Source: Escherichia coli O157:H7 (GTDB lineage Bacteria > Pseudomonadota > Gammaproteobacteria > Enterobacterales > Enterobacteriaceae). Taken from it: a stretch of DNA of 64,000 bases. The position numbers were made by a program. This document shows positions 15,001-18,000 of this stretch, in pieces. The stretch lies in NCBI RefSeq assembly GCF_013167455.1, contig NZ_CP038328.1. One strand, written 5' to 3'. Each line of letters starts with the position of its first letter. The first letter of the stretch is position 1.

Positions 15001-18000
15001 TGATAGCCAGAGCAGATTGTTCTGATGCGCCAAACAAGATATCTGCATTTTTTTTGGCATCTTCATTCCATTTGTTCTGTGGGCCGTAATGAACGTTCAC
15101 TATAATACCTGTTTTTTCGGCATAAAGTTTGGCTGCATCAAGCAAGGCTGTATGCGGGCCACCAGGACCATACAGATTGATATCAGCATAAGCAGCAGAA
15201 GACAGGAATATTAAAAAACCTGCCATTATGTTCCTCATAAAAAACTCCTTTTATTGGTTATCATGAAATAAAGTTATAAACACTACAAATAATATATATT
15301 ACATCCAGATAAACTTATCCGACTTTACCTCGTGCATAGCTTGTTATTTAAAGTCAACAAAATAAGGAAAATTATACGCATATTGAAGAGTATAAACCTT
15401 ACATGTTGATTACATTTTTGTAATCAACATCCTGTTTGGAATAGCCAGCCTTTAATGGATAACTATTTCTGACAATGCAATGAGTATAATCAAGTCCATC
15501 TTCCACTGAGAATTAGAGGCGGCATGCTTTTTCCGGCTCTTGCCGGATATCCGTAATTGTCCATAATCTGCAGATTTATACCTTCTGCATGACCTGTCAG
15601 CGAAAATTTGTCCGGTGTTTCTACGGGAATGACATCAAAAGTTACACGCACTCGCGTTACCGTGTAGACCTACTTTCCTGCACTTGCAAGATCACAGTGG
15701 TGTAACCGTAACAGGAATTTATTCTCTGGACCGGCAGTAAATCCCTGAGTGGCGTGGTTCCCATATCAATTTCCCGCCAGGCAGCCTCCATTGCCAGCGT
15801 ACAGGCTGGAGCCATGACCTGCCCTTTAAATCTGGCCCGACCATCCCACCGGACGTGTTCTTCTCCCCTGAACTTAGGTACAGTCATCTCCAGTGGCACA
15901 AAAGTGTCAGCGCCATAATTTTTGACCGTTATCGCGCTACGGATATTTTGTTGACTGGTGAAAATCACCCCGCAGAATCAGGCTTATTCCCTTAACCTGG
16001 GCTTTCATCCTGACCGCCGCCTCACTACGACCAATCAGACTGCCGATGCATTTTACCTTCATTGTTAGTATCATGATTTCAGGCCTGCACCATCCGCTCA
16101 TTGCCCGGACTTCCGACAAATCCCGGCAACCATATCCCGGTGCTTGTTCAGCTCCCGCAGCGCGGCGCAGACTCGCTCCCACTTCTGGACATGATTCTTC
16201 GCCCTACGCAGTTCGCGATTTGCCATATGCAGCGATGGCAAAATCAAATCATCTTCTCGCGTTGCAGTAAACGATGGCAGCGACTGCACAATGTCCGCCA
16301 CAGTTTCTGTTTTAATATCTTCCTGTGTTGCATCTTTCTGTACCGGTAACGCAACACCGGCTGGCTGAGGAAAGGCTTTACCATCGGTTTCCGCTACCGA
16401 TTCAACTTTCGGCTCTGCTGGTAAATTATCACCTGGTATGCAGTAACGAATTTTACCGTTCTGGTTTACGCGAATCAGACGACCTTTGCTGATTGCCATT
16501 GCCAGCGTTGAAGCAACTTTGCGGGATGTTGTACCGAACAGCGTAGCCAGTTCATCCGCCGTTTGTGGTCCGCGTTGTTCAATCGTCGCGGTTAAATCGC
16601 ACTCTGAGATTTTCGCTTCTGTTGCCGTGGTGGTTTCTTCTGGCGCTGGCTGTTCCTGCTGAACGTTGTTATCAGCCACACGCCAAGTGTATACGCTTTT
16701 ATCAACGAAGCCAGCCTTTTTCAGTTCCCACAGCTCGTTCAGTACTTCTTCACGACTGATATCAAGTCGCGCAGCCAGCTATACCGACGTGGCTTTTCCC
16801 ATCGCTTTCAGTGCGTCAAAAACAGTCTCCATAAATTTCCTCCCGGTAAAAAATCACTTCTCAACTCAAACAAAACCAGCCGCTTTCCGGCGTTCATATT
16901 CCTGTTTCAGCAACTCAATTGGCGTTGGCCCCGACGGGCGTTTGGGGGCCGCCAGTTGTCGCCGGACTGGCGGAACGCTCAGGCCGTTACTAACATGCTT
17001 TGCCCATTTCGTCAGTTGCCGTTCTGCAAGCCGTTTTAATTCCCCTTCGGTCATCTGGCGCTCAATCCCCTTTGAACGCATCTCGAGGCAAATGTGATAC
17101 AGCACAGGCTGAGACCACGGGTACTTATCACTTCCGTCGTATCGCCAGGACTCATTGCGCCAGCGGCGGTACTCCTCCATCACAGCATCCACCGTCAGAC
17201 CGAATGGATTGGCTCCGCTTTTCGAAATCAGTGCCACAAACTCAGCCAGGTCCGGAGGCCATGTTTCACCCGCCCGGCAGCGGTCCATGCACTGGCGGCA
17301 GACCTGCCGGATTTGCTGCTCAGTCATCGCGCCAATCTGTGCAATCCAGAGCTTCGAAGGTGCGGCCCCGTTCTTCTGGATCCAGCGGTTCGAATAAACC
17401 ACCCCCATGAGTTCCCACAGCTTCCAGGCCGTTTCCGTCGCTGATAAATCCGTTTTCACGTTCCCACTGCTCACGTGCTGCCCGAATTTCCTGAACTGCC
17501 CGTGATGCGGTGCCACCTGGTGCTGCTGCATGGTTTACCCCTTTGCTGACTGGTTTAACCTGCGCCCTGACGTGATTTACGTGACGGGCGAATTTCTGCT
17601 CCCACTGAATCTGCGTAAACACTTTCCCCTCCGCTGCCCAGTAGTCCCGGAAGGCGGCAAGTTCAGCAGGTGTAAATTCTGTCTCCGGCAAAGCCATCCC
17701 CCACAACGCAGCCCGTCGTCGAAAATCCCGTGACGGATACCAGCTATCGCTCATCGGGAATTTTCCGATGGGTTCGCTCAGGCCATACAGGAATACAGGG
17801 GGGGCTGCCTGTAACGACAAAACTTCCTGCTCACTGGTCGGAGCACTCTCGCGTGCGTTATGTGTGGGGTTTAGATCTTTGGGTTCCTTTGGGTTCCGTG
17901 ATCCGTTTTTGGGTGTCTTTGATGGAAAATTTGGGTGTCTTTGGTTATTTTCCATGCAGCTAAGAGTTCTGTTTTTGGGTCTGTTTTGTGCTGAAACATA

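Follow-up and report, generated by a model that had tools for sequence, protein, structure and literature searches.

Two genes that probably share one stretch of DNA

The window considered here, meaning the whole stretch of 64,000 nucleotides (nt) analysed, comes from Escherichia coli O157:H7 (RefSeq assembly GCF_013167455.1, contig NZ_CP038328.1), and its minus strand carries a prophage replication module in which the gene of a putative initiator protein and that of a predicted DnaB helicase loader run into each other. A previous sequence-only reading had described the two open reading frames (ORFs) as O-like and P-like, after the replication genes of phage lambda, and as overlapping by up to 212 nt in different frames, which proved correct: the shared segment extends over 17320-17531 on the minus strand and corresponds to O residues ~277-346 plus the stop codon and to P residues 1-70. 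The P codons start one base after the O codons, which puts P in frame +1 with respect to O. The DNA of this region is 100% identical to the Rac-like O157:H7 prophage “PPompW” (LC567818 and related records), and a 1.7-kb segment is at least 80% present in more than 900 complete E. coli genomes, where it is identical or near-identical.

The initiator gene (17320-18360, minus strand) encodes 346 amino acids (aa), arranged as a helix-turn-helix (HTH) region, a linker bearing candidate iterons, a single-stranded DNA-binding domain of the DnaT type and a C-terminal tail of ~70 residues. Counted from the first TTG, the ORF extends from 18435 to 17320; the ATG at 18360 was accepted as its start, the TGA stop codon lies at 17322-17320, and the RefSeq coding sequence (CDS) WP_000020556.1 has identical coordinates (18360 to 17320). 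The DnaT domain is recognized by Pfam PF17948 (61 bits against a cut-off of 25, E=9e-17, residues 202-268), by an NCBIfam DnaT match at residues 195-279, and by DnaT chains in the PDB (6aep and 9zbt, E=1e-16 to 1e-19). Compared with the full-length DnaT equivalog the protein reaches 93 bits, below the cut-off of 201, and it is thus a relative of DnaT through this domain, not DnaT itself. The N-terminus gives a weak match to HTH_36 (PF13730; 20.8 bits, below the cut-off of 25, E=3e-4). A Pfam search found no match of the initiator to PF04492 (Phage_rep_O), the lambda O family, for which lambda O itself scores 123 bits. On these domain matches, the upstream gene is O-like by position and role only, and the earlier label does not extend to family membership, since the protein combines an HTH region with a DnaT C-terminal domain.

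Two further observations concern the initiator gene itself. Its linker-coding part (window 17878-18074) contains between three and six direct repeats, TTTGGGTGTCTTTG / TTTTTGGGTGTCTT, which on the coding strand translate as repeated PKN/PKNG/NPKEPK peptides; they are probably the iterons of the prophage origin, situated inside the initiator gene as ori-lambda is in O. At its 5' end, a gene of the YdaT-toxin family (18883 to 18332) overlaps the initiator start (18360) by 29 nt out of frame (18332-18360), so that this operon has another co-directional overlap, shorter than the first.

As for the downstream gene, its frame contains ATG codons at 17531 (M1), 17408 (M42), 17327 (M69) and 17288 (M82), together with a TAA two codons before M1, and therefore no P form longer than 221 aa is possible in the window. 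Annotators have chosen differently among these codons: the 221-aa protein from M1 is that of earlier NCBI entries (P0001, which clusters 521 sequences), a 180-181-aa form from M42 is given by the Prokaryotic Genome Annotation Pipeline (PGAP) in Klebsiella, Citrobacter, Kluyvera and Brenneria, a 153-aa form from M69 by PGAP in E. coli and also by the authors of Rac-SA53, and a 140-aa form from M82 in LC567818. Profile searches and the predicted fold (see below) identify the product as belonging to the helicase-loader family of lambda P and as a predicted DnaB loader. Its PF06992 match reaches 61.2 bits, the gathering score being 26 (E=1.3e-16, residues 60-188 aligned to profile positions 32-161), and hhalign matches it to lambda P with a probability of 93% (E=2.7e-7). 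Sequence identity to lambda P is ~24%. Its homologs, of 212-223 aa and 50-78% identity, cover 96-100% of the 221-aa form. This long form, which we propose as the true CDS, would occupy 16866-17531 on the minus strand; its putative start codon (17529-17531) follows a Shine-Dalgarno (SD) sequence, AAAGGGG, located within the O coding sequence at 17538-17544, 6 nt 5' of the ATG (anti-SD duplex energy, -8.0).

Conservation of the start signals and of both frames

A genome scan using one genome per species retrieved 25 loci, which were reduced to 19 non-redundant ones by removing near-duplicates and four damaged loci. They belong to Escherichia, Citrobacter, Klebsiella, Phytobacter, Pluralibacter, Kluyvera, Prodigiosinella, Pectobacterium, Erwinia, Serratia, Dryocola, Yersinia, Samsonia and Limnobaculum, with P identities of 44-92%. 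A first scan of IMG/VR returned only E. coli relatives (96-100% identity), which served for the study of polymorphism (44 haplotypes), and a second one, seeded with a Yersinia sequence, provided 66 distinct P N-termini from phage contigs. In 19 out of 19 loci there is an ATG at the position of M1 from which the P frame is open, and the upstream gene extends 149-227 nt beyond it. Approximately 60 of the 66 distinct IMG/VR loci likewise combine an SD and an ATG with an overlap of 125-227 nt; the others depart from this through a spurious upstream ATG (four loci), a truncated P (one) or the absence of an upstream ORF (one). Overall, the overlap architecture is kept in about 85 distinct loci.

Several individual loci deserve separate mention. 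In Leclercia adecarboxylata NCTC13032 (locus L020, 2974-3189), a frameshift joins the N-terminal 44 residues of the loader to the frame of the initiator tail (…AWHLWQVMGGNILEPVDAEEWGRTFGALDSPDRFDD), and the initiator frame ends early, as in an inactivated copy or a sequencing error. A 560-nt contig labelled Vibrio sinaloensis (NZ_AEVT01000091.1, L018) encodes a loader 75% identical to that of E. coli; an enterobacterial-type sequence in a Vibrio assembly looks like contamination. The distant loaders of the Yersinia, Samsonia and Limnobaculum loci (L027, L030 and L031) have in common the short ending AAG(N/V)RYVK in place of the usual C-terminal …EYxRRKAAGxx, which suggests that P is joined differently to what follows or that its 3' end is a second boundary of recombination.

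The start signals at M1 are strongly maintained. The ATG is found in 22 of 22 genome loci, the O codon lying over it is always NAT (His, Asn, Tyr or Asp), and the following O codon always begins with G (A, V, E or G); that is, the residue in O changes and the ATG stays. Among the 44 E. coli haplotypes, none has lost the M1 ATG or has a stop in the P frame. An SD sequence (GGAGG, GAGG, GGGAG or AGGGG) precedes the M1 ATG by 5-9 nt in every locus, and in most of them it is GGAGG or GAGG, decoded as Gly-Gly in O. The anti-SD energy averages -9.2 kcal/mol at M1 (-6 or lower in 18 of 19 loci), -4.9 kcal/mol at M42 (7 of 19) and -3.1 kcal/mol at M69 (1 of 19), against a background over all coding positions of -2.8 kcal/mol, with 13% of positions at -6 or lower. 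The comparison between ribosome-binding sites upstream of 17531 and 17327, proposed in the sequence-only reading, is thus favorable to the former (-9.2 vs. -3.1 kcal/mol). The internal methionines are less stable: a Met occupies position 42 in 18 of 19 loci (Leu, CTG, in L025), and M69 is replaced by Leu (CTG or TTG) in 4 of 19. Prediction of RNA structure around the P start with RNAalifold (19 loci, -60 to +40) yielded no pairs, and a conserved structure hiding or exposing the SD was rejected on that basis.

Constraint in each frame was measured as the fraction of sequence pairs with the same residue that use different codons (pair counts). In the O frame these synonymous differences amount to 0.53-0.57 outside the overlap, 0.49 over P residues 1-20, 0.35-0.39 over P residues 21-40 and 0.15 in the last 30 codons (P residues 42-70). 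In the P frame, they amount to 0.59 on the 3' side of the overlap, 0.32 at residues 1-20, ~0.52 at residues 21-52, and 0.59 at residues 53-70, where the last ~18 O residues put no detectable constraint on P (0.594 vs. 0.586). Amino acid identities follow the same division of the segment: at 17501-17472 identity is 0.43 for O vs. 0.21 for P, and from 17441 down it is 0.42-0.58 for P vs. 0.25-0.39 for O, the rest of P having 0.56. Among the E. coli haplotypes, variable sites of the 5' half are mainly at O third positions (12 of 24), and those of the 3' half mainly at P third positions (14 of 23). These comparisons show signs of selection on both frames, with the dominant frame switching along the overlap. 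On the O side, the conserved element is a helix, ASRAVQEIRAAREQWERE (O residues 286-303, 17452-17505, minus strand), which lies over variable P residues 9-27, predicted to be disordered. On the P side, residues 25-67 (17331-17459, minus strand), in which the model places the three initial helices of the domain that corresponds to domain II of lambda P, lie over the variable Gly- and acid-rich end of O. Thus, the ordered segment of each frame appears to be placed over the disordered segment of the other, which would make this locus a clean case of constraint sharing.

Within the overlap, P residues 36-67 form a block (AWxLWExMGEIYSNRWxxKNGxxPSxLWIAQIG) conserved in 46 homologs, in which W39, W50, K53, N54, G55, P58 and W62 are invariant. 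The codon of W39 is TGG in 19 of 19 loci, and the O residues over it vary (V/M/L, then G/A/D/E), which argues that the P frame is selected upstream of both M42 and M69. When the O protein was kept fixed and its codons were resampled synonymously, the P frame remained open across the whole overlap in 29% of trials per locus, or in 61% if only the part from M1 to W39 was considered; with the P protein fixed, the O frame reached the observed stop in 5.5% of trials per locus, and was open downstream of P residue 28 in 21%. Both frames are open in 19 of 19 loci against this expectation, to be read locus by locus, as the loci share ancestry and their probabilities cannot simply be multiplied; synonymous sites, however, are near saturation between them. 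The open P frame is more than chance.

The predicted structure of the loader is in line with the long form. An AlphaFold2 (AF2) model built from a 47-sequence alignment has a mean predicted local distance difference test (pLDDT) score of 77.6, with residues 1-26 disordered (pLDDT <50) and helices at 25-46, 48-54 and 60-67 with pLDDT 86-88; there are five helices counting those at 71-86 and 95-105 (pLDDT 80-88). In Foldseek, the PDB entries closest to this model are chains of lambda P in 9oa1 (198-220 columns, E=1.2e-5, probability 1.0), and the crystal structure of domain III (8v9s) is matched with a root-mean-square deviation of 1.1 over 70 columns; the global TM-score is only 0.45, as expected with flexibly linked domains. 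In lambda P, residues 1-29 make up domain I, a flexible N-terminal lasso, which is followed by domain II (compact, ~30-119), by domain III (120-192) and by a lasso at the C-terminus (PMC12661323), and according to the model the loader shares the fold and the domain order (I to IV) of the solved protein. A profile built without lambda P, avoiding circularity, aligned loader residue 87 to lambda P residue 95 (hhalign); by this alignment, collinearity with lambda P (233 aa) is restricted to the form of 221 aa.

The start of the loader

These sequence comparisons, together with the model, make us highly confident that the loader starts at the ATG at 17531, using an SD embedded in the initiator gene, and that the 212-nt overlap is genuine dual coding. 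Ribosomes on the initiator would stay in frame 0 to the TGA at 17320, and other ribosomes would initiate at 17531 in the +1 frame to give the 221-aa loader. The initiator helix would dominate in the 5' third, where the loader would encode a variable, disordered N-terminus comparable to the “N-terminal lasso” (domain I) of lambda P. In the 3' two-thirds, the first domain II helices of the loader would dominate, and the initiator would encode its variable and disordered Gly- and acid-rich end. The sequence-only reading had left two alternatives, dual-frame coding or an internal start near 17327; the former is favored by the conserved M1, SD and P N-terminus, and the latter is disfavored by the Leu replacements and the lack of an SD. 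It had also regarded a conserved N-terminal P sequence within the overlap as contrary to an internal start, and residues 36-67 of the 46 homologs are such a sequence.

Several facts weigh against a start at M1. RefSeq and PGAP annotate a loader of 153 aa in E. coli and one of 180 aa in other genera. P residues 1-20 are almost free of amino acid constraint, as the O synonymous differences over them (0.49) are close to those outside the overlap, and to find the P frame open between M1 and W39 is no great surprise at any one locus (0.61); moreover, the shared ancestry of the loci means that multiplied probabilities would overstate significance. Furthermore, similarity to lambda P is detectable only from residues 60-87 (BLASTP from residue 86, PF06992 from residue 60, hhalign without lambda P in the profile from 83-87), which agrees with the earlier remark that it begins near an internal Met in pairwise or profile comparison; consequently, it is the predicted fold and the collinearity that equate residues 25-68 with domain II of lambda P.

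Initiation at M42 (17406-17408, minus strand), with an overlap of 89 nt, or the production of both long and short isoforms from M1 and M42, seems improbable to us. This methionine is nearly constant and PGAP prefers it in the four genera named above; a weak SD-like TGGGA(A/G) lies upstream of it, with the intermediate energies already given, and P residues 1-26, which it would dispense with, are disordered in the model and barely constrained. However, the SD-like signal is forced by the W-E codons, M42 falls inside the predicted helix 25-46, which a start at this point would cut, and the codon is CTG in one locus. The invariant W39 and the conserved AW motif are located upstream of M42 over varying O residues, the O synonymous differences are already lower over P residues 21-40, and a universal ATG with a strong SD would be left unexplained at M1. 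M42 may be considered as a possible secondary start.

A start at M69 (17325-17327, minus strand), the RefSeq/PGAP choice giving 153 aa, is very unlikely in our judgment to be that of the family. In that case the loader would be coupled to the initiator stop via the 8-nt overlap ATGACTGA, and the open frame upstream would be a by-product of the initiator codons. Short start/stop overlaps are a common bacterial pattern, lambda O and P themselves overlap by 4 nt, PGAP selected the codon in E. coli, as did the authors of the Rac-SA53 record, and pairwise similarity to lambda P begins downstream of it. Nonetheless, M69 is not constant, the anti-SD energy before it equals the background, and residues 36-68, which it would exclude, are as conserved as the rest of P (0.42-0.58 vs. 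0.56). This conservation is driven by the P frame, because O synonymous differences fall to 0.15 there and variable sites concentrate at P third positions. Structurally, a start at M69 would delete the three predicted domain II helices (pLDDT 86-88), leaving 18 residues before the homologous block where lambda P has 94.

An artefactual overlap (one due to a sequencing error or a frameshift, or to a frame left open by chance, with either the 3' end of the initiator or the 5' end of the loader not translated into anything selected) is scarcely credible: the lack of detectable constraint from the last ~18 O residues on P synonymous sites and the variable tail length (overlap 149-227 nt) would fit it, but the sequence recurs identical or nearly so in more than 900 complete E. 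coli genomes, the architecture persists at 44-92% P identity in the loci described above, the initiator has no alternative stop, so that its tail is translated by construction, both frames are open far more often than synonymous resampling predicts, and the real frameshift case, that of Leclercia, looks different (P N-terminus fused to the O tail). A programmed frameshift producing an initiator-loader fusion was also set aside, as the conserved SD and ATG make an independent start simpler, no slippery-site search having been made; the fused frames of the Leclercia locus look like a mutation.

The choice of start has practical consequences. If the loader begins at M1, the RefSeq loader proteins are short of 41-68 N-terminal residues, including part of a folded domain, and cloning or modelling from RefSeq entries would use a truncated loader.

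The initiator tail and related systems

The upstream genes of the 19 loci are diverse in Pfam: some have a DnaT domain, one, that of the relative L021, has Phage_rep_O (PF04492), one has DUF1376 and several give no match. All the upstream genes of the 19 loci end in the same tail of ~70 residues ahead of P, which has three parts: the Gly-Gly encoding the loader SD; a conserved helix, (A/E)S(R/T)AVQQIRAARExWER, placed where P is variable; and a variable Gly- and acid-rich end differing in length among loci. In an AF2 prediction of the tail joined to P by a 30-residue Gly-Ser linker, the helix has pLDDT ~90 and the rest <50, a result that is suggestive only. Tail and loader head share nucleotides, and any covariation between them is therefore confounded. 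Within the distal part, the motif D-W-x-D-D is largely dictated by the QIGxMT codons of the loader and exerts no measurable constraint on synonymous sites of P; the distal sequence is probably a passenger, though its frame is kept open. YdaU of K-12, which stands ahead of a DnaC-like loader, is without this tail and ends in ...PPGFRG like DnaT. In the cases seen, the type of tail goes with the type of loader.

We infer from these sequences that the tail helix is probably an adaptor for the loader or for DnaB, inherited together with P, and that it would dock either of them in the role of the C-terminal P-binding domain of lambda O. Initiator tail and loader would be inherited as one cassette, because recombination at the junction would damage the one gene along with the other. 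A tail common to unrelated initiators would then mark a probable loader-adaptor element in a large class of initiators other than lambda O, offering a hypothesis on how initiator-loader specificity survives mosaic recombination. A further step, that the overlap is itself a selected device in which tail helix and loader, as partners or joint DnaB-docking elements, are welded into a unit that recombination cannot split, is put forward only tentatively, and we regard it as rather doubtful at present. If true, unrelated origin-binding domains (DnaT-type, lambda-O-type, DUF1376 and others) could be swapped upstream with the adaptor never parted from its matching loader, and a loader ribosome-binding site inside the initiator frame could tie the loader/initiator ratio to ribosome flow on the initiator.

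Around the two genes, some other features were recorded. The DUF1627 gene on the 3' side of the loader (16098-16832) has disagreeing starts: a GTG at 16679, the first start codon of the listed ORF (193 aa), 16778 according to PGAP (226 aa) and 16832 in LC567818 (244 aa). A fimbrial-protein pseudogene, frameshifted and with an internal stop according to RefSeq, lies just past the replication module at ~15400-15932. In strain PV15-279 (NZ_AP018488.1), IS1203, of the IS3 family, interrupts the module, and the match is in two pieces across 3 kb.

The order of the genes recalls that of lambda O and P, with the initiator directly upstream of a PF06992 loader of similar length (221 aa here vs. 233 aa) and of the same predicted fold, and with iteron-like repeats inside the initiator gene as ori-lambda is inside O. 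The two systems differ in their overlap (4 nt in lambda vs. 212 nt here) and in the initiator itself, lambda O belonging to PF04492 and the present protein having an HTH region and a DnaT C-terminal domain instead. In lambda, it is the C-terminal part of the initiator that deals with P. For work on this part of O and its dealings with P, a construct comprising O residues 156-299 has been used (PMC12661323). A comparable domain pairing is that of DopC/DopE, in which a protein with HTH_36 and a DnaT C-terminal motif has a PF06992 partner, a pair described as originating from genes of lambdoid phages (Brezellec et al., 2017; PMC5509034). As published, the description matches the domain pair found here, allowing for the weak HTH_36 match; in contrast, DopC and DopE are chromosomal, domesticated genes of other Gammaproteobacteria, and an overlap is unmentioned in that paper (PMC5509034).

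Among Rac prophages, ydaU-ydaV of K-12 has the same neighbourhood (repressor, ydaS/ydaT-like genes, initiator, loader and DUF1627 gene), but YdaU belongs to DUF1376, and the gene that comes next, 6 nt further on, encodes a DnaC/IstB-like ATPase, with neither the overlapping tail nor a P-family loader. Rac-SA53 has the 3' half of the initiator and P in common with the window, at 92% DNA identity. The module of an initiator and a P-like loader is already known; no prior description of the 212-nt junction was found in the openly searchable literature, subscription-only papers being outside the search.

Long overlaps are familiar in phages, as in lambda, where Rz contains Rz1 in its +1 frame and both products cooperate to form the spanin. 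By analogy, two cooperating proteins would be encoded in one stretch of DNA here as well, although Rz1 is wholly embedded in Rz and the present overlap is a tail-to-head junction of two otherwise separate genes. In cellular genomes, a survey of 338 prokaryotes found no genuine co-directional overlap longer than 60 bp (Palleja et al., 2008; PMC2478687). Against that limit, the conserved overlap of 125-227 nt described here is co-directional and bears comparative signals in both frames. The longest genuine case in the survey, holD/rimI of Enterobacteria (PMC2478687), is a conserved tail-to-head co-directional overlap like the present one, but it spans 32-56 bp as against 125-227 bp, and joins cellular instead of phage genes.

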